A stretch of 64,000 bases of DNA, taken from positions 167,325 to 231,324 of the forward strand of contig CAVPHV010000017.1 in the NCBI GenBank assembly GCA_963704825.1. Direction: 5' to 3'. The DNA is from an uncultured Acidimicrobiia bacterium (GTDB lineage: Bacteria > Actinomycetota > Acidimicrobiia > Spongiisociales > UBA5794). Under the pieces are notes generated by a model. It was not told the DNA's origin. It saw nothing but the letters and a program-made list of their open reading frames with translations, and made no database searches. Each line of letters opens with the position of its first letter. Within the stretch, counting starts at the first letter, position 1. Positions 1,918 to 47,691 of the stretch are shown piece after piece. Made by a program: the position numbers and the translations under genes.

Positions 1918-4317
1918 GAGGCGGTCGCGCAGGCGGCCCACCAGGGCGGTCAACTCGGGTCCGGTTCGGATCGGGACACCAAGTCGGCGCACGTAGAAGA
2001 CATCGCGCGCCTGGCCGCCCATCGTGTCGACCCGCGCCAGGTGGATGTCGAGGCCCTCTCCGTGCAGTGCCTCGACGATTCTGGTGAGTAGACCGAACCC
2101 GTCTTGCGCCCTCACCTCGATCACCGTGAATTGGCCCGCCTCGTGTCCCCGCACCTCGAATGCGCTCCTTTTCTGCCCGTCGACTCGGTAGGCGAGGGTC
2201 TTCTCGCTGATCTTGGTCTGCAGTGCATGTTGGTCGGAGAGCAGCGCAAGCAAACTGGCAAGAAGTCGGTCCCACCGATCCGGCGCTACCACTCCTTTGG
2301 TGAGTTCATCCCGCACGCGGAACGTATCGAGAACGACGCCATCCGACCGGGTGCGCAGGCGGGCTTCCATCACCTCGACACCGTTGGCCGTGAAGGCGCG
2401 GGTCACGGCGAGCAGGAATCCAGACCGATCTTCTCCGACAACCAGCACGCGACCAGGGTCGTCGGGGTCAACGGACACTTGGGCCGGCCTTTCAAGGACA
2501 GACGTCATCTCGATATGCCAGACGACGTCGCGCGGCGTCGCCGCGTCGAGGTACTCGGCCGCCATTGCGGCCACGTGCTCCTCGATGGCGCGACGGTCGA
2601 GCGTCGGTCCTGCGGTCGCCACGATGGCGTCGATGTCGGGGGTGGCGCGCGGCGCGCTGCCTGCAGTGATTGCCGTGCTCACCTTGCTGTATAGGTCGTG
2701 CAACAAAGCCGCCCGCCACTCGTTCCACATAGTCGTTCCGGTGGCCCGCAGATCCGCAATAGTCAGGAGATACAGCACGTTGAGGCGATGGAGGTCTCCG
2801 ATCTGGGTCGCCACCTCGTCGATGACGGCTGGGTCTGCGGTGTCCCTCCTGGTCGCGGTCTCCGAGAGCAGCAAGTGGAGGCGAACGGCATCGGTGACTG
2901 CCCCGATCGTTGCGGGACCGTAGCCGACGCGTCGCATGAAGCTCGCGGTGAGGTCAGCACCGACGATCTGGTGATTGCCGCCACGCGCTTTGCCGATGTC
3001 GTGCAAGAAGGCGGCGAGCAACAACTCCTCTGTCGATCCGACCTCGTCGGCCAGGGCACCGGTTTCGTCATGGCTTGCGATCAGACCGAGCATCTCGTCG
3101 ACGGTTCGCCACAGATGGGCACCAACTGGGTGGTCGTGAAACGGTGCAAGTTGTGGAGCCGTCGCCACCGGGCCCCATTCCGGGAACTCCCGATCGACCC
3201 AGCCCAGCTCCTCGAGGCGTCCGAAGATCGCTCTGCCTCTTGGGCCTCCAGACAGGAGGGTCACGAACGCAGCGCGATCGTCGGCCGACCATTTGCCCAC
3301 TGAAGCTGCCCGCACCACCTCTGCTTCACCTCGCGTGAGGCTGGCGCCGTTGCGGCGGCCCGCCGCTCTCACCGCGATGGCGAGAACGCCCGTCTCGCTG
3401 CTGGTCGCCTCGCCTGATGCCGAGAAGCGGCTTCGGATGGTGGCGAAGACCCGCCGGCCGAACCCTGCGAGGGGAGTTCGGTCGACATGGAGGTCCGGCC
3501 AGCGCCTATCGGCAAGCCGATCACCGGTATCGAGGGCTGTGGTCATGTCGGCTGCGAGCGAGTACACATCTGTCTCGAGCCAGCGCGCAGCCGAATCGCG
3601 CAGGTCCACCACGAATCGGTCCATGGCCCGGCCGGCTGCGGCGTGGAGGGCATTGCGAATCGACAGCAGGCTGGCTCGGGCTTCAACCTCTTCTTGTCCG
3701 GGCACGTCGACGTCGAGACCGATGAGTTCTGCACGCCGCCGCTCCCACCAGAAGCCCTGGTGGGTCCGCAGTGCACCTCGGCCTTCCTTCACGTCTGCCG
3801 TCATGGTGGGGTACGGCTCGACAACCCGACGCTCCCGTTCCTGCGCCACGAGCCGCGAACTCAGCGGATGCGTGCGAACCAGATCCGCGACCGTTGCCAT
3901 GAGGTCGGCGAACAGTTCCTCGTCACCGGCCACCAAACGGGCCGACAGAAGCGAAGTGAGGGTATCCAGGCGATCACCGCCGGCGTCTCGACTCTCGGCA
4001 ACGGTTCGCACCGCGTGGCCGACCTTCAGATTGGCGTCCCAGAGGGGATAGAGAACCGTTCGGATCAGAGACTCGGGGTCGCCGCCTCGATGCAGCAGCA
4101 TGACGTCGATGTCCGACCAGAGGCATTGTTCCTCACGCCCATACCCGCCGAGGGCAACGACGGCTGCGTCGGAGCCGACATCAACCGCAAGCTCACGCAG
4201 GGCTGAATCGAGGCTGTTGCTGAGGGCGGCACAGGTGTCGAGTCCACCGTCCCCAATCCGCTCATGGGCGAGCCGGCGACGGAGGTCGAGGAAGGGTTCG
4301 AGGGGTGGGAGAGTCAG
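1909..4317 (-). CDS. glnD: [Protein-PII] uridylyltransferase/uridylyl-removing enzyme GlnD (start codon unresolved)
   Basis: HD domain (AAFLHDIGKARG...) and C-terminal ACT domains. The ATG-based ORF begins at 4101 inside the nucleotidyltransferase domain. The frame stays open up to the TAG at 4420-4422 and encodes the conserved NTase motif VVALGGYGREEQCLWSDIDVMLLH upstream of 4101. There is no ATG/GTG/TTG in that stretch; a CTG lies at 4317. Confidence 0.85.
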   Translation of the reverse strand: MTLPPLEPFLDLRRRLAHERIGDGGLDTCAALSNSLDSALRELAVDVGSDAAVVALGGYGREEQCLWSDIDVMLLHRGGDPESLIRTVLYPLWDANLKVGHAVRTVAESRDAGGDRLDTLTSLLSARLVAGDEELFADLMATVADLVRTHPLSSRLVAQERERRVVEPYPTMTADVKEGRGALRTHQGFWWERRRAELIGLDVDVPGQEEVEARASLLSIRNALHAAAGRAMDRFVVDLRDSAARWLETDVYSLAADMTTALDTGDRLADRRWPDLHVDRTPLAGFGRRVFATIRSRFSASGEATSSETGVLAIAVRAAGRRNGASLTRGEAEVVRAASVGKWSADDRAAFVTLLSGGPRGRAIFGRLEELGWVDREFPEWGPVATAPQLAPFHDHPVGAHLWRTVDEMLGLIASHDETGALADEVGSTEELLLAAFLHDIGKARGGNHQIVGADLTASFMRRVGYGPATIGAVTDAVRLHLLLSETATRRDTADPAVIDEVATQIGDLHRLNVLYLLTIADLRATGTTMWNEWRAALLHDLYSKVSTAITAGSAPRATPDIDAIVATAGPTLDRRAIEEHVAAMAAEYLDAATPRDVVWHIEMTSVLERPAQVSVDPDDPGRVLVVGEDRSGFLLAVTRAFTANGVEVMEARLRTRSDGVVLDTFRVRDELTKGVVAPDRWDRLLASLLALLSDQHALQTKISEKTLAYRVDGQKRSAFEVRGHEAGQFTVIEVRAQDGFGLLTRIVEALHGEGLDIHLARVDTMGGQARDVFYVRRLGVPIRTGPELTALVGRLRDRLGG

Positions 4318-37072: not shown

Positions 37073-37155
37073 CGACCCTGGGGAAACCGGGAACCCACTC
37101 TGACCTGGGCAGCGTCAGAGGTTGGGCCCATGGGGGGACCCTCCGGCGCCTCCGA

Positions 37156-37250
37156 CGCCGCGGCGACTATCAGACTCCGCGGCGACTTTCAGACTCCGCG
37201 GCGACTTTCAGACTCCGCGGAGACTTTCAGACTCCGCGGAGACTTTCAGT
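37156..37250. repeat. Tandem repeat, 5 copies of a 19-bp unit (ccgcggNgactNtcagact) plus partial leading copy
   Basis: Units at 37156, 37175, 37194, 37213 and 37232. The last two carry the perfect 10-bp palindrome CTCCGCGGAG. Lies between convergent genes and overlaps the last codons of the lipoprotein gene. Confidence 0.85.
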
Positions 37251-38577
37251 CTCCGGCGAGGAAGAAGCGCCACTCACCGCCGCCGTCGATCCCGTGGCGC
37301 CAACCGACATAGCCGCCGAGAACGTCGAACATCTCTTCGAGTTCATCCACCGAGTACAGCTCGAGTAGTGCGGCGTAGTCGGCATCCGACAACCCGTCGC
37401 CGTACGGTGAGGTGAGGTTGGCGATCGCCGATGGCCACAGGTAGAACCCGCCTGCCTCGGCGGCGGCCGGCTCGGCGTAGGCCAGGTTGAGGTGCCGGGC
37501 CATCGCCGCCACCACGGCACTACCCCGGATTTCGAGGTCCATCCAGAACTCGGGAACCTCGCCCCCGCCAAAGCTGGCTTCGAAGCCGTTCTCACCCTGG
37601 TTGGCTAGTTCGCCGAGTGTCGCGTAGTCACAGGCCATGGCGCCTGCGAAAATGGCGTCGCGCGTTGTCGCCACGTCGTCCGGCAGTCCTTCCTGAGCCA
37701 GCGGTTCGAGTTCCAGGCCGGTGGTCGAGCAGATCGCCGGGCTCTCCTCTTCGAGGTTGGTGGTCTGGATCTCCAGGGTGGTCTGGTCGAGCAGGGCGTA
37801 GCCGTCGTAGCCGGACACCGCTACGGCCGTCTCAGTGCCGGCGAGATTCTCGAAGACGACCAACTCGACGGGGTCGTTGATCGTCCAATACTCGGGGAGC
37901 GTGGTATCGCTCGATGGTGGGTAGCCGCTGTCGTTGACCCACGGGTAGACCCGCACCAGCGCCTCACCGGTGGCGCGGTTGATCCGACACACCATCGAGT
38001 CGGGGAGCCCACCGTCGCCCTGCCGGGCGCAATAGGCGGCGTCGGGGGTGAGTACCAGCCGTTGTGGCGGCAGCCCCGGCAGCGGCCAGGCCCGGATGAT
38101 CGCCCCGGTCGAGCCGTCGAGCAGCAGAACCTCGCCGTATTCGATGACGTTGATGAAGTCTGCGACGTAGTCGCCGTTGCGGTCACCGAGTACACCGTCG
38201 CCGGTCAGCGTCCACAGGTCGTCGGGGGGCCGGGAGGCGACCCAGACGCCTTCGGCAGCGCGTAGTTCGAAGACCGGGTCGACTCGCAATTCGATCGGCA
38301 GCGCGGCAAGTTCGGGCACCACGCCGTCTCGCTGTGCATCCGCGGCGCTTTGGCTCGGTTCGCCGGTGACGATTGTGGTGGTCGTCGTTGCCGGCGGCGC
38401 CGTGGTCGTCGGAGCGGTTGCGGTGGTTGAGGCCGGTGGTGCTGCCGTCGTGGTGGCAACCGGCGCGTCTGTGGCCGCCGGGGCGGTGGTGTCGCTGGCT
38501 TCAGTTCCGCACGAGGCGGCCAGCATGGCCGCTGCGAGCACCGGGGTCCAGACCCGAAGCGTCCGCAGCCATGTCAT
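37246..38577 (-). CDS. Putative secreted lipoprotein (hypothetical) with Thr/Ala/Pro-rich linker
   Basis: Start at MTWLRTLRVWTPVLAAAMLAASCGTE (lipobox LAASC). A low-complexity TTAAPPASTTATAPTTTAPP linker precedes a ~350-aa domain with no recognisable family. Confidence 0.6.
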   Translation of the reverse strand: MTWLRTLRVWTPVLAAAMLAASCGTEASDTTAPAATDAPVATTTAAPPASTTATAPTTTAPPATTTTTIVTGEPSQSAADAQRDGVVPELAALPIELRVDPVFELRAAEGVWVASRPPDDLWTLTGDGVLGDRNGDYVADFINVIEYGEVLLLDGSTGAIIRAWPLPGLPPQRLVLTPDAAYCARQGDGGLPDSMVCRINRATGEALVRVYPWVNDSGYPPSSDTTLPEYWTINDPVELVVFENLAGTETAVAVSGYDGYALLDQTTLEIQTTNLEEESPAICSTTGLELEPLAQEGLPDDVATTRDAIFAGAMACDYATLGELANQGENGFEASFGGGEVPEFWMDLEIRGSAVVAAMARHLNLAYAEPAAAEAGGFYLWPSAIANLTSPYGDGLSDADYAALLELYSVDELEEMFDVLGGYVGWRHGIDGGGEWRFFLAGD

Positions 38578-42898: not shown

Positions 42899-44692
42899 TC
42901 ACACCCCCATCAGTTCGTCGTCGATCGCAAACAGCGAGTCGGCGCCGCGGGTGACGGCGGGAAGCAGTCCGGCCGCTTGGGGCAGGATCTGCTCGGCATA
43001 GAACCGGGCCGTCGCCACCTTGGCCTCGAGGAATCGGTCCCCGGCGCTTCCGTTGTTGAGGAGGCGGGTGGCAACCAGAGCCGATTTCGCCAGGTAGTAG
43101 CCGCCGGCCACGATGCCGAACATGCGTAGGTAGGGCGTAGCGCCGGCGAGCCGGTCGTTCGGGTCGTCTGCCGCCGCGAGCCACTCCGTGGCTTCCCGCA
43201 GCAGGGCCACACCGTCACCGAGATCGATCCTGATCGAGGCGAGGTCGTCGTGTCCCTCGAACGCGGGGTCGAGTGCCGCCATTTCGTCGAGGTATCCGGC
43301 GACGACGGCACCACCCGCCATGGGCAGTTTGCGCATCACGAGGTCGATGGCCTGGATGCCGTTGGTGCCCTCGTAGATCGGGGCGATGCGAGCATCGCGA
43401 TAATGCTGGGCGGCTCCGGTTTCCTCCACGAACCCCATCCCACCGTGGACCTGAACCGCCAGTGAGGTCAGCTCTACGCCGAGGTCCGTGCCCCACGCCT
43501 TCGAGATGGGGGTCAGCAAGGCGGCGCGAGCGGCGCCGCGCTGGCGGCTCTCGTCGTCGGGTCCGTTCTCTGCCCAGTCCAAGGCGGCGGCGTTGTCGTA
43601 CATCAACGCTCGCATCGCCTCGATGTTGGCCCGCATCGTCATCAGCATCCGGCGGACGTCGGGATGCTCGATGATGGGTGAGCTCCCCGGCGGCGTGGTT
43701 CCAATGGCGCGACCCTGGCGGCGCTCCTTGGCGTAGTCGACCGCCTGTTGGTAGGCCCGCTCTGCGATGCCGAGGCCTTCGAGTCCGACATGGAGCCTGG
43801 CGTCGTTCATCATCGTGAACATGTAGCGCATGCCCTGGTTGACCTCGCCGACCAGATAGCCGACCGCACCGTCGTCCTCGCCGAACGCCATGACGGCAGT
43901 TGGGCTCGAGTGAATGCCGAGCTTGTGTTCGAGCGATACCGCCGTGACGTCGTTGCGTTCGCGGCGCGACCCGTCCGGGTTGACCAGGTATTTGGGAACG
44001 ATGAAGAGGCTGATCCCCTTGGTCCCCGGCGGCGCATCGGGAACCCGGGCCAGCACCAGATGGATGATGTTGTCGGCGACGTTGTGATCGCCCCATGTGA
44101 TGAAGATCTTGGTGCCGTAGATGCGCCACGTGCCGTCGTCTTGGGGCTCGGCCTTGGTCCGCACGGCGCCCACATCCGAGCCGGCCTCGGGCTCGGTGAG
44201 GACCATGGTCCCCGTCCATTCGCCGCTGATCAGCTTCTCGAGATAGAGGGCCTTCTGTTCGTCGGAGCCGTGTTGGTCGATGGCGAGGATTGCCGAGGCG
44301 GTCAACATGGGGCAGAGCGAAAACGCCATGTTGGCCGACGTGAGCATCTCCATCACCGGGATTCCCACCGCGGTGGGGAAGCCGTGGCCGCCGTATTCGG
44401 CGGTGCTTTTGACGGCACCCCAGCCGGCGGCAACAAACTGCTCGTAAGCGCGTTTGATCTCCGGTGCCAGGATCACGTCCCCTTCGGTGTCGATCATGGC
44501 CCCCACTTCGTCGCCGATCCGATTGGTTGGGGCGATGACCTCGGCCATGAACCGGCCGGCCTCGTCGAGCGCGCCAAACGAGAGTTCTCGATCCACATGT
44601 TCGTAGCCGGGCAACTCGGCAATGCCGTCCAGGTCCACGATGTGCTCGAGGACGAACTTCATGTCGCGCAGTGGGGGTCGGTAGTCGCTCAT
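42899..44692 (-). CDS. Acyl-CoA dehydrogenase (long FadE type, ~597 aa)
   Basis: ACAD N/M/C domains (GEWTGTMVLTEPEAGSDVGAV; YEGTNGIQAIDLV) with a C-terminal extension. True start is MSDYRPPLRDMKF at 44692; the 230 upstream ORF-track residues are an artefact. Confidence 0.85.
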   Translation of the reverse strand: MSDYRPPLRDMKFVLEHIVDLDGIAELPGYEHVDRELSFGALDEAGRFMAEVIAPTNRIGDEVGAMIDTEGDVILAPEIKRAYEQFVAAGWGAVKSTAEYGGHGFPTAVGIPVMEMLTSANMAFSLCPMLTASAILAIDQHGSDEQKALYLEKLISGEWTGTMVLTEPEAGSDVGAVRTKAEPQDDGTWRIYGTKIFITWGDHNVADNIIHLVLARVPDAPPGTKGISLFIVPKYLVNPDGSRRERNDVTAVSLEHKLGIHSSPTAVMAFGEDDGAVGYLVGEVNQGMRYMFTMMNDARLHVGLEGLGIAERAYQQAVDYAKERRQGRAIGTTPPGSSPIIEHPDVRRMLMTMRANIEAMRALMYDNAAALDWAENGPDDESRQRGAARAALLTPISKAWGTDLGVELTSLAVQVHGGMGFVEETGAAQHYRDARIAPIYEGTNGIQAIDLVMRKLPMAGGAVVAGYLDEMAALDPAFEGHDDLASIRIDLGDGVALLREATEWLAAADDPNDRLAGATPYLRMFGIVAGGYYLAKSALVATRLLNNGSAGDRFLEAKVATARFYAEQILPQAAGLLPAVTRGADSLFAIDDELMGV

Positions 44693-44884
44693 AGCGGCAG
44701 AATACTGGCCCTCAACGCACTGGAGCCATTGGATCATGGAGCGTGGATCATGGAGCGCAGCATCCAGCCAGTCGTTTCGTGGATGTCGATCCGTCGAGCG
44801 GCGAGGTCGGCTTCTGCACCAGAGGGGCCGAACGGTAGGTTTCGGGGACCATTCGTCCCTGCCACCCATCAGGAAGGAACGACC

Positions 44885-45235
44885 GTGAAGTTTGCACTGC
44901 TCATCTACAGCGACGAGAACACCGCCCCGATGCCGGAGACCCCGGCGGCGCAGCAGGTGTTCGACGAATATGTGGCGTTCACGACACGCATCACCGAGCG
45001 GGGAATCAGCCGCGGCGGCGAGGCTCTCCACGACAGCGGTACTGCCGCCACCGTGCAGGTGGTCGAAGGCGAGGTTGTTGTCACCGAGGCTCCGGCCGTC
45101 GACTCGCGCCAGGTGCTCGGCGGCTTCTATGTCATCGACGTCCCCGACAAGGCGGCCGCCATCGCGGTCGCCACCGAGCTCCCCGGATCCCGTTACGGCG
45201 CGGTCGAGGTGCGGCCCGTTTGGTCCTGGGAGTGA
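44885..45235 (+). CDS. YciI-like (DGPF) domain protein
   Basis: VKFALLIYSDE... is the typical YciI start. GTG 44885 follows caggaaggaac. Only the C-terminal 116 aa of the 495-aa ORF-track entry are real. Confidence 0.7.
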   Translation: MKFALLIYSDENTAPMPETPAAQQVFDEYVAFTTRITERGISRGGEALHDSGTAATVQVVEGEVVVTEAPAVDSRQVLGGFYVIDVPDKAAAIAVATELPGSRYGAVEVRPVWSWE

Positions 45236-45482
45236 GCCGTTGGTGACGAGGGTTCGAACGTGTGTGGTCGTTGGGCCCGCCGACCCATTTTGCAGATTGC
45301 CCTGCAGAAACGGGCAGAATATGCCGATAAACCCCGGGAGTGGATAGAGCTCTCCAAGGGAGGCGGCTGAAGCCGAGCCCAAGGTAGGTACCGATGTCCA
45401 CTCGCCGACAGAGGCCTCAGGGCGGCGGTCCGTATTGCATCTCTATGCAGCGGTGATCCAACTGACCGCTCGAAATCCTCAG

Positions 45483-45507
45483 AAGCCCGCCCCGCGGCGG
45501 GCTTCGT
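45483..45507. other. Strong GC hairpin (gaagcccgcc-ccgc-ggcgggcttc), terminator-like
   Basis: Perfect 10-bp stem with a 4-nt loop. Sits in a 650-bp non-coding stretch, immediately before the 65-bp repeat array. No U-tract on the + strand; only a weak one on the - strand. Confidence 0.3.
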
Positions 45508-45517
45508 CGCGTGCTGC

Positions 45518-45865
45518 TGACGGAGTCAGCAGCACGTTGTAGTTTCCTACCGGAAACTACTGGTGAGGGATTCCCGGTGGGGTGACGGAGTCAGCAGCAC
45601 GTTGTGGTTTCCTACCGGAAACTACTGGTGAGGGATTCCCGGTGGGGTGACGGAGTCAGCAGCACGTTGTGGTTTCCTACCGGAAACTACTGGTGAGGGA
45701 TTCCCGGTGGGGTGACGGAGTCAGCAGCACGTTGTGGTTTCCTACCGGAAACTACTGGTGAGGGATTCCCGGTGGGGTGACGGAGTCAGCAGCACGTTGT
45801 GGTTTCCTACCGGAAACTACTGGTGAGGGATTCCCGATGGGTGACGGAGTCAGCAGCACGTTGGT
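45518..45865. repeat. Tandem repeat array, 5 copies of a 65-bp unit plus a 23-bp partial copy
   Basis: Unit tgacggagtcagcagcacgttgtggtttcctaccggaaactactggtgagggattcccggtgggg begins at 45518, 45583, 45648, 45713 and 45778, with a partial copy at 45842. Copies are near-identical (1 substitution in copy 1, 1-bp change in the last). Each unit holds a gtttcc-tacc-ggaaac hairpin. Ends 18 bp before the PIG-L start. No spacers, so not CRISPR. Confidence 0.9.
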
Positions 45866-45882
45866 CAGCTAGGTTTGCCGCC

Positions 45883-46689
45883 ATGGCCACCCTTGTGTTC
45901 TTCCATGCCCATCCCGACGACGAAGCCATCGCCACCGGCGGCTCGATGGCCGCCGCCGCCGACGCCGGCCACCGAGTTGTTCTCATCGTGGCGACGGGCG
46001 GTGAGGAGGGCGAAGTTGCCGACGGCTTCCTGAGCGACGGCGAAACCCTGGAAGAGGTTCGCGAACGCGAGACGTGCGCCGCAGCCTCGATTCTCGGGTC
46101 GGCCCGGGTGCACTTCCTCGGGTACCGCGATTCCGGGATGATGGGGGAAGCGGCCAACGAGCACCCGGAGAGCTTCTGGCGAGCCGACGTCGAAGCTGCC
46201 GCCGCTCAGGTTGCCGCGATCCTCGCAGAAGAGCAGGCCGATGTCGTGACGGTCTACGACGACCACGGGGGTTACGGCCACCCGGACCACATCCAGGTGC
46301 ACCGCGTTGGTCACCGTGCCGCGGAACTGGCCGACACCCCGCGGGTGTTCGAAGCGACCATGAATCGTGACCTGGTTCGCCAGTGGAGTTCCGTGATGCG
46401 TGCCGAACGGGAAGATCTCACGACGGCGGCCGAAGTCGATGACCCCAACCTGGAAAAGGTGGGGCTGCCGGACGACCAGCTCACCACCGCCGTCGACGTC
46501 GTGGCGTTGATCGACCGAAAGCGACGAGCGATGGCCGCCCACGCCAGCCAGATCGATGACGACTCGTGGTTCTTCCAGCTCCCCCCGGACGCCTTTGCCA
46601 TGGCCTTTGGCACAGAGTGGTACCGCCGCACCAGGCCGGCGTTCGAAGCCATGTTGCCCGATGGCCGTGAGCACGAGTTGCTCGGCTGA
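45883..46689 (+). CDS. PIG-L/LmbE-family N-acetylglucosaminyl deacetylase (MshB/Mca-like)
   Basis: FFHAHPDDEAIATGG...HPDH; the zinc-binding HPDDE motif is at the N-terminus. True start is ATG 45883. The ORF-track extension reads into the repeat array. Confidence 0.8.
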   Translation: MATLVFFHAHPDDEAIATGGSMAAAADAGHRVVLIVATGGEEGEVADGFLSDGETLEEVRERETCAAASILGSARVHFLGYRDSGMMGEAANEHPESFWRADVEAAAAQVAAILAEEQADVVTVYDDHGGYGHPDHIQVHRVGHRAAELADTPRVFEATMNRDLVRQWSSVMRAEREDLTTAAEVDDPNLEKVGLPDDQLTTAVDVVALIDRKRRAMAAHASQIDDDSWFFQLPPDAFAMAFGTEWYRRTRPAFEAMLPDGREHELLG

Positions 46690-46713: not shown

Positions 46714-47691
46714 ATGCGGGCATTGTTGTGCACCAACCCGGGGCCGGACTTCACACTCGAGATCGGTGAGATTCCGGATCTGGTGCCCGGTCCCGGCGAG
46801 GTTGTGATCGAGGTGAAGGCGGCTGGGCTCAACTTTCCCGACACGCTGATCATCCAGGGCCGGTACCAATTCAAGCCTGAGCCACCGTTTTCTCCCGGGG
46901 CCGAGGCGGCCGGACTGGTGGCGGCGGTCGGTGATGGGGTCGACCTGGTGGTGGGAACGCCGGTGGTTGCGCTCGGGGTCTTTGGCGCATTCGCCGAGCA
47001 ATGGGTGGTGCCGGCTGACACCGTGATGCCGCTGCCTGTCGGTCTTGGGTTCGAGCGTGGCGCCGGATTTGGCCTCACCTACGGCACGGCGTACTACGCG
47101 CTCAAGCAGCAAAGTCGCCTCGAGCGCGGTGAGGTGCTGCTGGTGCTCGGTGCCGCCGGAGGAGTCGGCAGCGCTGCCGTCCAGATCGGTAAGGCAATGG
47201 GGGCCACCGTCATTGCGGCCGCCGGGTCGGATGAGAAGCTGGCGTTCGCAGCAGACTGTGGCGCCGACCTAGCGGTCAACTATGTGCGCGAGGACCTGAA
47301 GGCCCGGATCCGCGAGCTCACGGCCGGTCACGGGGTCGACGTTGTCTTCGACCCGGTGGGAGGAGACATGTCGGAGCCGGCGTTGCGAGCGACGGCGTGG
47401 GACGGCCGCTTCCTCGTCATCGGATTTGCCGCTGGCGACATCCCCCGGATTCCGCTCAACCTGGTTCTGCTCAAGGGCCTCCACATCATCGGTGTCTTCT
47501 GGGGGAGCTGGGTCGGCCGTGAGCCGCTGGCTTCACGTCGCAACTACGAAGAGCTGCTCGAGATGGTGGCAGGCGGCGCTATCGATCTGCCTGCAGTGGA
47601 GGTTCATGAACTCGAGGATCATGCCGCCGCCTTTGCCGCACTGACGGAGCGCAGGGCCAAGGGCAAAGTCGTTCTACGAATCCGGGAGTGA
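46714..47691 (+). CDS. qor: NADPH:quinone oxidoreductase / zinc-independent MDR-family enoyl reductase
   Basis: MDR fold with LGAAGGVGSAAVQIGKAMGA Rossmann motif. ATG 46714 follows gagagggg. Confidence 0.85.
   Translation: MRALLCTNPGPDFTLEIGEIPDLVPGPGEVVIEVKAAGLNFPDTLIIQGRYQFKPEPPFSPGAEAAGLVAAVGDGVDLVVGTPVVALGVFGAFAEQWVVPADTVMPLPVGLGFERGAGFGLTYGTAYYALKQQSRLERGEVLLVLGAAGGVGSAAVQIGKAMGATVIAAAGSDEKLAFAADCGADLAVNYVREDLKARIRELTAGHGVDVVFDPVGGDMSEPALRATAWDGRFLVIGFAAGDIPRIPLNLVLLKGLHIIGVFWGSWVGREPLASRRNYEELLEMVAGGAIDLPAVEVHELEDHAAAFAALTERRAKGKVVLRIRE

Follow-up and report, generated by a model that had tools for sequence, protein, structure and literature searches.

The 65-bp tandem array found upstream of a PIG-L family deacetylase gene in the window (the whole 64-kb stretch of DNA that was analyzed) is an ordinary minisatellite and not a structured mRNA leader. 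We favor, with some reserve, the view that it is a locus-specific minisatellite of variable copy number (VNTR) located in nontranscribed DNA upstream of a promoter. The array appears to sit between two hairpins, T1 and H1, which would mark the end of an element linked to a YCII-domain gene, and the hexamer TAGGTT, which would serve the leaderless operon of the PIG-L and quinone oxidoreductase genes.

The array occupies positions 45518..45863. Tandem Repeats Finder described it with a period of 65, 5.3 copies and 98% matches (score 671), and the near-perfect 65-bp repeat reported in the first-pass annotation was thereby confirmed. Five units stand in register (45518-45582, 45583-45647, 45648-45712, 45713-45777 and 45778-45841), the fifth being 64 bp long, and are followed by the 22-bp partial unit TGACGGAGTCAGCAGCACGTTG (45842-45863). 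Units 2, 3 and 4 are identical in sequence. Unit 1 differs by a single base, A for G at unit position 24, which makes its hairpin H2 perfect, and unit 5 was shortened to 64 bp by the deletion of one G, which lies, like a G-to-A change, close to the unit end. The array thus has the head-to-tail arrangement, the unit of at least 10 bp and the high identity by which a minisatellite is defined. No ORF of at least 40 aa was found inside 45518-45798 on either strand. A GTG at 45799 is in frame with the PIG-L gene, but a start at this codon would add an N-terminal extension that the orthologues are without, since all of them begin at MATLVFFHAHPDDE. Therefore, the array is non-coding, as had been proposed from the unit length. 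It had also been placed 18 bp before the ATG of the PIG-L gene; the gap is in fact 19 nt (45864-45882). A search with three sub-motifs of the unit, in which up to 3 mismatches were allowed, revealed no further occurrence in the 64-kb window (about 0-0.3 matches were obtained in the shuffle control).

Each unit begins with the 3' arm and the U-rich tail of hairpin H1, continues with the 9-bp hairpin H2 and ends with a 22-nt spacer. H2 has the sequence GT(A/G)GTTTCC-TACC-GGAAACTAC. In unit 1 (45539..45560, plus strand), it forms a perfect 9-bp stem with a TACC loop, and the further copies (45604-45625, 45669-45690, 45734-45755 and 45799-45820) contain one G.T/G.U pair each. The folding energies of H2 were -12.3 and -12.0 kcal/mol (z -6.6 and -4.8), whereas outside H2 the unit did not exceed shuffled sequence in structure (z -1.15). 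The hairpin gtttcc-tacc-ggaaac of the first-pass annotation was therefore present but had been described with too short a stem. In the sister lineages X and Y, H2 reads GCAGTTTCC-TTC-GGAAACTGC, with a compensatory T:A to C:G change relative to the window; in total, its variation comprised this change and one G.U-compatible change. The distance from H2 to the start codon varied from about -73 in the window to -97 in lineage Y and -152 in lineage X.

H1 and its U-rich tail, TTGTAGTTTCC (45509..45548, plus strand), resemble an intrinsic terminator with a 12-13 bp stem and a GGA loop. The stem contains a 12-bp perfect inverted repeat, CGTGCTGCTGAC-GGA-GTCAGCAGCACG, whose arms occupy 45510-45521 and 45525-45536. 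This inverted repeat had been said to precede the first copy of the array; it is real, but its 3' arm and the tail are the first 22 or more bases of unit 1, so that the two overlap. Both arms are present in unit 1 only, and later units retain 4 bp of the stem. A terminator scan returned a single site, 45509-45537, followed by TGTAGTTTCC. H1 folded at -23.2 kcal/mol (z -4.63), and compensatory changes were observed in its stem, namely T:A to G:C in lineages X and Y and three compensated pairs in lineage V. With a GC-rich stem-loop, a U-rich tract and a position at the end of a transcription unit, H1 may be considered a putative intrinsic terminator. The second hairpin, T1 (45482..45505, plus strand), has the form GAAGCCCGCC-N4-GGCGGGCTTC with a GC-rich stem of 10 bp and folded at -21.4 kcal/mol (z -4.75). 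Its stem is invariant between lineages, whereas its loop varies.

The upstream neighbor of the array is a YCII-domain gene on the plus strand (44885..45235; Pfam PF03795, E 5.9e-13), which starts with GTG in the window and with ATG in a near-identical contig, L001. A look-up of the YCII protein of the window returned no match, but this result is probably uninformative, since the GTG had been translated with V in place of M. The gene order around it is unchanged in L001 and in the sister-lineage contigs L003, L083, L084 and L090. About 95 nt after this gene, a conserved non-coding element of roughly 175 nt was found (45333..45508, plus strand), which ends in T1. It was 92-95% identical to its counterparts in lineages X, Y and Z, versus 83-90% for the PIG-L coding sequence and 82% for the YCII gene (X and Z). 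A 20-aa small ORF in the element was excluded by an ATG to ATA change in lineage Z and a 1-nt indel in lineage X. The element has a predicted two-domain fold in which the loops TGAA, TTCG and TGAC are exchanged on a constant CGGC/GCCG stem, and it corresponds to no Rfam family. A covariance model built for it matched lineages W (that of the window), X, Y, Z and V only; when run against 43 loci and the window, it revealed no distant homologue, the distant orthologous locus L087 included. Covariation support in the alignment of the element was thin, with one compensated pair, located in H1. Together with T1 and H1, the element belongs to the YCII side and not to the PIG-L gene, and it may be either a putative 3' UTR or a putative small RNA. 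As a by-product of this work, an unannotated and highly conserved non-coding element downstream of YCII may outweigh the repeat in usefulness.

The PIG-L gene (45883..46689, plus strand; Pfam PF02585, E 2.1e-27) encodes an MshB/Mca-like deacetylase. It scored below both NCBIfam equivalog cut-offs, with 171 bits versus 224 for MshB and 132 versus 277 for Mca, and the closest protein among GTDB species representatives belongs to an uncultured Acidimicrobiaceae MAG (84% amino-acid identity), which identifies the source of the window as an uncultured Acidimicrobiia bacterium. A gene for a PIG3-type NAD(P)H quinone oxidoreductase (46714..47691, plus strand) starts 24 nt downstream and is probably co-transcribed with it; the pair is kept in all close lineages whose contigs extend that far.

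The upstream regions of the PIG-L orthologues were compared at 73 loci with a recognizable start codon. In 59 of these, a TANNNT hexamer ended 6-8 nt before the start codon (offsets of 6, 7 and 8 nt in 18, 34 and 7 loci, respectively), and within the 0-59 nt before the start codon the hexamer occurred at only four other offsets. Shine-Dalgarno motifs were absent upstream of the PIG-L starts at these 73 loci. In the window, the predicted -10 hexamer TAGGTT (45870-45875, plus strand) lies 7 nt before the ATG at 45883 and 6 nt past the end of the array. The PIG-L gene is thus almost certainly leaderless, with a predicted transcription start at the A of this ATG. In mycobacterial leaderless transcripts, TANNNT is centered 7-12 bp upstream of the transcription start and a -35 consensus is missing (PMC3898074), and the motif and spacing at the PIG-L gene agree with this description. 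Since the PIG-L gene bears the Actinomycetota signature of a leaderless start and no Shine-Dalgarno motif, the array is placed upstream of the predicted transcription start, and its partial unit spans the -35 zone of the promoter.

No sigma-70 consensus site was detected by a promoter scan of 45100-46000. TANNNT was not found on the plus strand of units 2-5, and unit 1 alone contains TAGTTT, owing to its A variant; TAGTTT is also present on the minus strand of every unit, which is within chance expectation. Inspection of both strands of the unit by eye gave no convincing match to ECF-type (GGAAT-N18-GTT) or sigma-A -35/-10 motifs. Since units 2-5 are without TANNNT and the -10 hexamer is outside the array, copy number would not multiply promoters. 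In lineage U (L091), ...GCTAGCTTtgcggcATG is retained before the PIG-L gene, although the DNA upstream of it is wholly different and contains a divergent gene, without the conserved element and without the array. Therefore, the core promoter presumably works independently of the upstream sequence. The leaderless architecture of this promoter is strongly conserved among PIG-L orthologues and is a further by-product that may prove more useful than the repeat.

Copy number was compared with that in L001 (ENA contig ERZ25039600:contig_21141, 289 kb), which was obtained from another sample and carries the PIG-L protein. The flanks of the array in L001 were 99.5-99.9% identical to those in the window; over 12.6 kb, they differed by 31 substitutions and 2 one-base indels, which clustered around YCII. 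L001 contained 2.3 copies, that is, exactly unit 1, the unit 5 variant and the partial unit, the last with its own T to C change. On these differences, L001 is a strain different from that of the window. Given 5.3 and 2.3 copies, as read from the contigs of two assemblies, in genomes otherwise almost identical, the locus behaves as a VNTR, and in this respect the suggestion of the first-pass annotation is supported.

The same spot was studied in sister lineages. In lineage Y (L084; PIG-L 91% identical at the amino-acid level), it is occupied by a near-perfect array of its own with a 65-bp period and 2.5 copies, the unit of which consists of H1 (8 bp retained), H2 in the form with the TTC loop and a spacer unlike that of the window. 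Lineage X (L083, L085 and L090; PIG-L 93% in L083) contains H1 and H2 once and, 78 bp later, a second copy that has diverged and forms hairpins of its own. In lineage V (L089; PIG-L 85%), a 44-nt insert was found within H1. This insert aligned to the Y-type junction formed by the H2 3' arm, the spacer and the next H1 (z 6.1, p<2e-4), and the z value was 2.9 without the shared head; it would fit a decayed two-unit array with a deletion of ~22 nt and an original period near 65. In lineage Z (L003 and L086; PIG-L 84% in L003), nothing is left but a 14-nt x2 stretch derived from the H1 3' arm. The spacers of lineages W and Y were not significantly similar, whether compared mutually or with V and X, and the idea of two ancestral unit types, one amplified in W and the other in Y, was dropped for this reason. 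Of the cross-lineage similarities tested, only the one linking the insert of V to the unit junction of Y held. A single ancestral duplication behind the arrays of these lineages is nevertheless plausible, and the comparison points to a site that has long been host to tandem duplications of a terminator-arm/hairpin module, with their expansion, homogenization, decay and loss.

From these data, the history of the locus may be proposed as follows. The duplication of ~65 bp seems to be older than the divergence of several sister lineages; thereafter, it would have been expanded and homogenized in the window and in lineage Y, decayed in lineages X and V, and almost deleted in lineage Z. The array would grow and shrink by slipped-strand mispairing or by unequal recombination between identical units, and the strong hairpins possibly help this resizing. 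A change in copy number would alter the DNA that precedes the promoter and the distance from the promoter to the upstream terminators, leaving the number of promoters and the -10/-35 spacing unaltered. For the latter reason, and because lineages without an array keep the promoter, the unit beyond H2 shows no structure above the shuffled level and other repeats occur elsewhere in these genomes, the effect of the array on PIG-L transcription is probably small or neutral.

The closest known analogues of the array are the promoter tandem repeats of Mycobacterium tuberculosis, which have recently been proposed to be phase-variable expression switches (PMC12817950). They are described as lying "proximally upstream of leaderless promoters" and as polymorphic even within sublineages; the repeat unit is 57 bp at dop, 58 bp at lpdA (12 bp upstream) and 54-56 bp at cysG (29 bp upstream), and a second copy at lpdA was shown to alter a phenotype (PMC12817950). 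By analogy, resizing of the array in the window might switch or tune transcription of the operon, a tuning role of copy number having also been raised in the first-pass annotation, and might make a thiol or detoxification function heterogeneous within the population. This alternative is unlikely, though less so than the others considered. The phylum is the same (Actinomycetota), the head-to-tail units are of similar size (54-58 bp versus 65 bp, or ~55-65 bp overall), the leaderless start is 12-29 bp away in M. tuberculosis versus 19 bp here (PMC12817950), copy number varies among very close strains, and slippage or recombination is presumed in both cases. The array thus appears to stand proximally upstream of a leaderless promoter in the same way. 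Furthermore, the tandem organization lasts across lineages, L087 carries other repeats at the equivalent position, and the covariation of H2 and the persistent 65-bp period leave room for a regulatory role. However, the promoter itself is said to be the repeated segment in M. tuberculosis, each additional copy being an additional promoter (PMC12817950), whereas the unit of the window, half of an upstream terminator followed by a hairpin, does not appear to contain one: its units 2-5 are without TANNNT, and the sole -10 element is outside the array. Moreover, lineages Z and U have kept the promoter without an array, and the distance between H2 and the start codon is not fixed across lineages. 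If copy number does affect expression, the locus would be an environmental counterpart, in an uncultured lineage, of the M. tuberculosis promoter tandem repeats, and switches upstream of leaderless genes might perhaps be general in Actinomycetota.

A related but more doubtful proposal is that the 65-bp module is a selected, phase-variable control element, kept in the tandem state by concerted evolution since before the lineages split and setting the insulation of the operon from, or its coupling to, the YCII-linked RNA. At least three lineages have kept both the tandem organization and the 65-bp period even though the loop differs by 1 nt, and this could reflect selection on the module rather than neutrality. 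If this were true, switching by promoter-proximal minisatellites would extend from M. tuberculosis to uncultured soil Actinomycetota, and the unit involved would not be a promoter in its own right.

It had also been suggested that the array is transcribed and forms a structured 5' leader in the PIG-L mRNA. Its hairpins would then be riboswitch-like or stabilizing, and copy number would act at the RNA level. H2 is stable in every unit, its variation is compatible with a function in RNA (one compensatory pair and one G.U pair), and the same strand carries a conserved structured element upstream of the array. This suggestion is nevertheless improbable. The hexamer 6-8 nt before the start in 59 of 73 loci and the lack of a Shine-Dalgarno motif indicate a leaderless start at the ATG and place the array upstream of it. 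In addition, T1 and the terminator-like H1, both strong, separate the conserved element from the array, and in lineage U the PIG-L gene has the same core promoter without the element or the array. A search of Rfam, which had been recommended along with blastn of the unit, gave no match at the gathering score in the 64-kb window, and at E<=10 in 45100-46000 only chance-level matches were obtained (E 0.17 or worse). A known structured RNA or riboswitch leader could thus be discarded, as no curated covariance model of Rfam was matched; a tRNA/tmRNA search also found none.

Equally improbable is a series of sites bound by a regulatory protein, with the 22-bp H2 palindrome as a putative operator in five copies upstream of the promoter. 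The palindrome is perfect or nearly so and recurs at a regular spacing of 65 bp, and both half-sites change symmetrically between lineages. Yet its symmetry is broken in units 2-5 (GTGG...CTAC), its position relative to the promoter differs between lineages, and it is missing from lineages Z, V and U even though their promoter is the same. It was found nowhere else in the 64 kb, and there is no adjacent transcription factor gene in the window or in L001.

There is little reason to believe that the copy-number difference is an assembly artefact, with one or two units at the true locus or with L001 as a collapsed version of the same allele. L001 corresponds to the window without its three identical internal units, as a collapse would produce. 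A short-read contig, L002 (Logan, 1,270 bp), which also carries the PIG-L protein and matches the window at 100% identity, starts within the array, as happens where short reads cannot resolve a repeat. On the other hand, five units in identical phase over 346 bp are untypical of short-read assemblers, whose usual error is collapse and not expansion. L001 comes from another strain, with its 31 substitutions and its own SNP within the partial unit, and the independent sister-lineage contig L084 likewise has a 65-bp array. Names of the type "contig_N" suggest Flye long-read assemblies; a 1-bp indel that splits the gene call of an acyl-CoA dehydrogenase in L001 is weak support for the long-read origin of that assembly. 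In practice, short-read assemblies break or collapse at such a locus, whereas long-read-like contigs resolve strain-level differences in copy number.

Tandem amplification, at this locus, of a member of a dispersed repeat family (MIRU-, REP/BIME- or MITE-like) is very improbable, although the first-pass annotation had likened the array to MIRU elements, since the intergenic site and the palindromic core shared with REP elements are outweighed by the absence of a second copy in the 64 kb, of the exact H2 20-mer from GTDB species representatives, JGI metagenomes and IMG/VR, and of blastn matches on plasmids and phages, and by the fact that the 5' part of the unit is merely a local terminator arm common to the orthologous loci. 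The blastn search was performed with two units against PLSDB plasmids and INPHARED phages; as no match was obtained and no transposase was present among the neighboring genes, the terminal repeat of an IS or other mobile element was also rejected, an identity that had been named among the findings that would refute the first-pass interpretation. A CRISPR array was rejected because the whole 65-bp period is repeated identically, without unique spacers; the sole CRISPR-DR match in Rfam was to hairpin T1 and was weak (E 2.5).

Several other classes of repeats resemble the array in part. Enterobacterial REPs are dispersed in hundreds of copies in alternating orientation. Like REP and BIME elements, the array has intergenic, hairpin-bearing units near 3' ends or terminators, but its unit is directly repeated at one locus. 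In the contingency loci of Neisseria and Haemophilus, repeats of 1-7 nt are located between -35 and -10 or in an ORF, where they alter the spacing or the reading frame. The array shares with these simple-sequence repeats a slippage-prone character next to a promoter and the capacity to create heritable, reversible variation; however, its 65-bp units lie wholly upstream of the -10 hexamer, so the spacing of the core promoter would be constant. MIRUs reportedly form a sequence family at about 40 loci, with small ORFs that often overlap neighboring genes. As at MIRU-VNTR and ETR loci of mycobacteria (Supply et al. 1997, 2000; Frothingham & Meeker-O'Connell 1998), the array is an intergenic minisatellite with a unit of 40-100 bp and strain-variable copy number in a high-GC actinobacterium. 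Unlike a MIRU, its unit was present at a single locus within the searched scope and has no ORF of at least 40 aa, and it is nearer to locus-specific VNTRs of the ETR/QUB type.

Repeats were also found at the equivalent position in L087, a distant orthologous locus (72%). There, 7-nt tandem repeats stretch over about 110 nt behind an unrelated terminator and run close to the TAATCT -10 hexamer of a leaderless promoter of the same type. This parallel hints that repeats at the position upstream of PIG-L might be favored. Small tandem repeats were present within 50 nt upstream of PIG-L in 7 of 80 loci versus about 3 expected from their density in the 700-nt flanks, an excess too weak for a claim of enrichment. 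Other tandem repeats were observed in unrelated contexts: one of 19 bp x5.4 is located between convergent genes in the window (37154-37255), and one of 42 bp x2.7 is found at the 3' end of the YCII gene in L084. Their occurrence suggests a general tendency of these genomes to tandem duplication.

A non-coding element of approximately 175 nt was located on the + strand 3' of YCII, the upstream neighbour of the PIG-L gene (window 45333-45508), and its counterparts were found in L003 (2753-2931), L083 (2633-2810), L084 (1125-1303) and L089 (1-99), which represent lineages Z, X, Y and V, respectively. The identity of the element was 92-95%, which was higher than that of the flanking coding DNA. 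It was predicted to fold into two domains, in which the tetraloops TGAA, TTCG and TGAC were exchanged and the stem beneath them remained constant; its 3' end was formed by the hairpins T1 (45482-45505) and H1 (45509-45548). No Rfam family was found for the element, and its covariance model gave matches in five close Acidimicrobiaceae lineages only. Because the sequences were too alike, just one compensated pair was detected, and it was located in H1. It qualifies as a candidate for either an sRNA or a 3' UTR element.

The window was compared with the contig of the near-identical strain, L001. Of 31 substitutions, 13 fell within approximately 400 bp spanning YCII (window 44843-45226, L001 5156-5539), including the one that distinguished the YCII start codon GTG of the window from ATG in L001, whereas only five were found in the 6.8 kb downstream of this cluster. 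The cluster looks like a recombination tract, one end of which adjoins the conserved element. Additionally, L001 contained a 1-bp insertion at position 4274 (between window positions 43961 and 43962), which split the acyl-CoA dehydrogenase gene call to 330 aa, whereas the 613-aa ORF was intact in the window. This insertion represents either a long-read consensus indel error or a pseudogene. The interval between the acyl-CoA dehydrogenase gene and YCII harbored a ferritin gene in lineages X and Y (L083 1603-2070, L090 1603-2070 and L084 7-474); this gene was absent from the window, where positions 44740-44885 were compared, and from L001.

The region upstream of PIG-L start codons was studied in L003-L082, 80 GTDB loci in most of which the start codon was at position 3001, and in the window (45870-45885). 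In 59 of the 73 PIG-L loci, a TANNNT hexamer ended 6-8 nt 5' of the start codon, and other offsets were almost never observed; no Shine-Dalgarno sequence was found upstream of the orthologue starts in these 73 loci. By this sequence evidence, the leaderless signature is common to the PIG-L (MshB/Mca-like) orthologues of Acidimicrobiia, Pseudonocardiaceae and other Actinomycetota. Lineage U (L091) lacked both the array and the conserved element; there, a small hairpin, GCCGAC-TCC-GTCGGC (515-540), was situated just 5' of the -10 hexamer of PIG-L. In reverse complement, this hairpin was similar to the inside of H1 with its GGA loop, and it may be an inversion remnant or a coincidence.

The window contained another near-perfect tandem repeat at 37154-37255, with a 19-bp unit in 5.4 copies (consensus GACTCCGCGGCGACTTTCA, 95% matches). 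It was located between two convergent ORFs, past the stop of the + strand ORF (37072) and reaching or overlapping the - strand ORF at its 3' end. In the sister lineage, a 42-bp repeat (x2.7, 95% matches; L084 ~910-1023) covered the 3' end of YCII; with it, the gene product as called was 156 aa long instead of 116 aa. These genomes seem to have a tendency to tandem duplication. At the locus of a distant PIG-L orthologue (L087, 72% aa), tandem repeats of 7 nt (GAGTAYN, GTACGCA and GTACGTG) extended over approximately 110 nt (~700-813) between a canonical terminator (gagaacccgc-tcc-ggcgggtttctc followed by TTTT) and TAATCT, the -10 hexamer of the leaderless promoter. These repeats occupied the same position as the 65-bp repeat of the window, but their sequence was unrelated to it.
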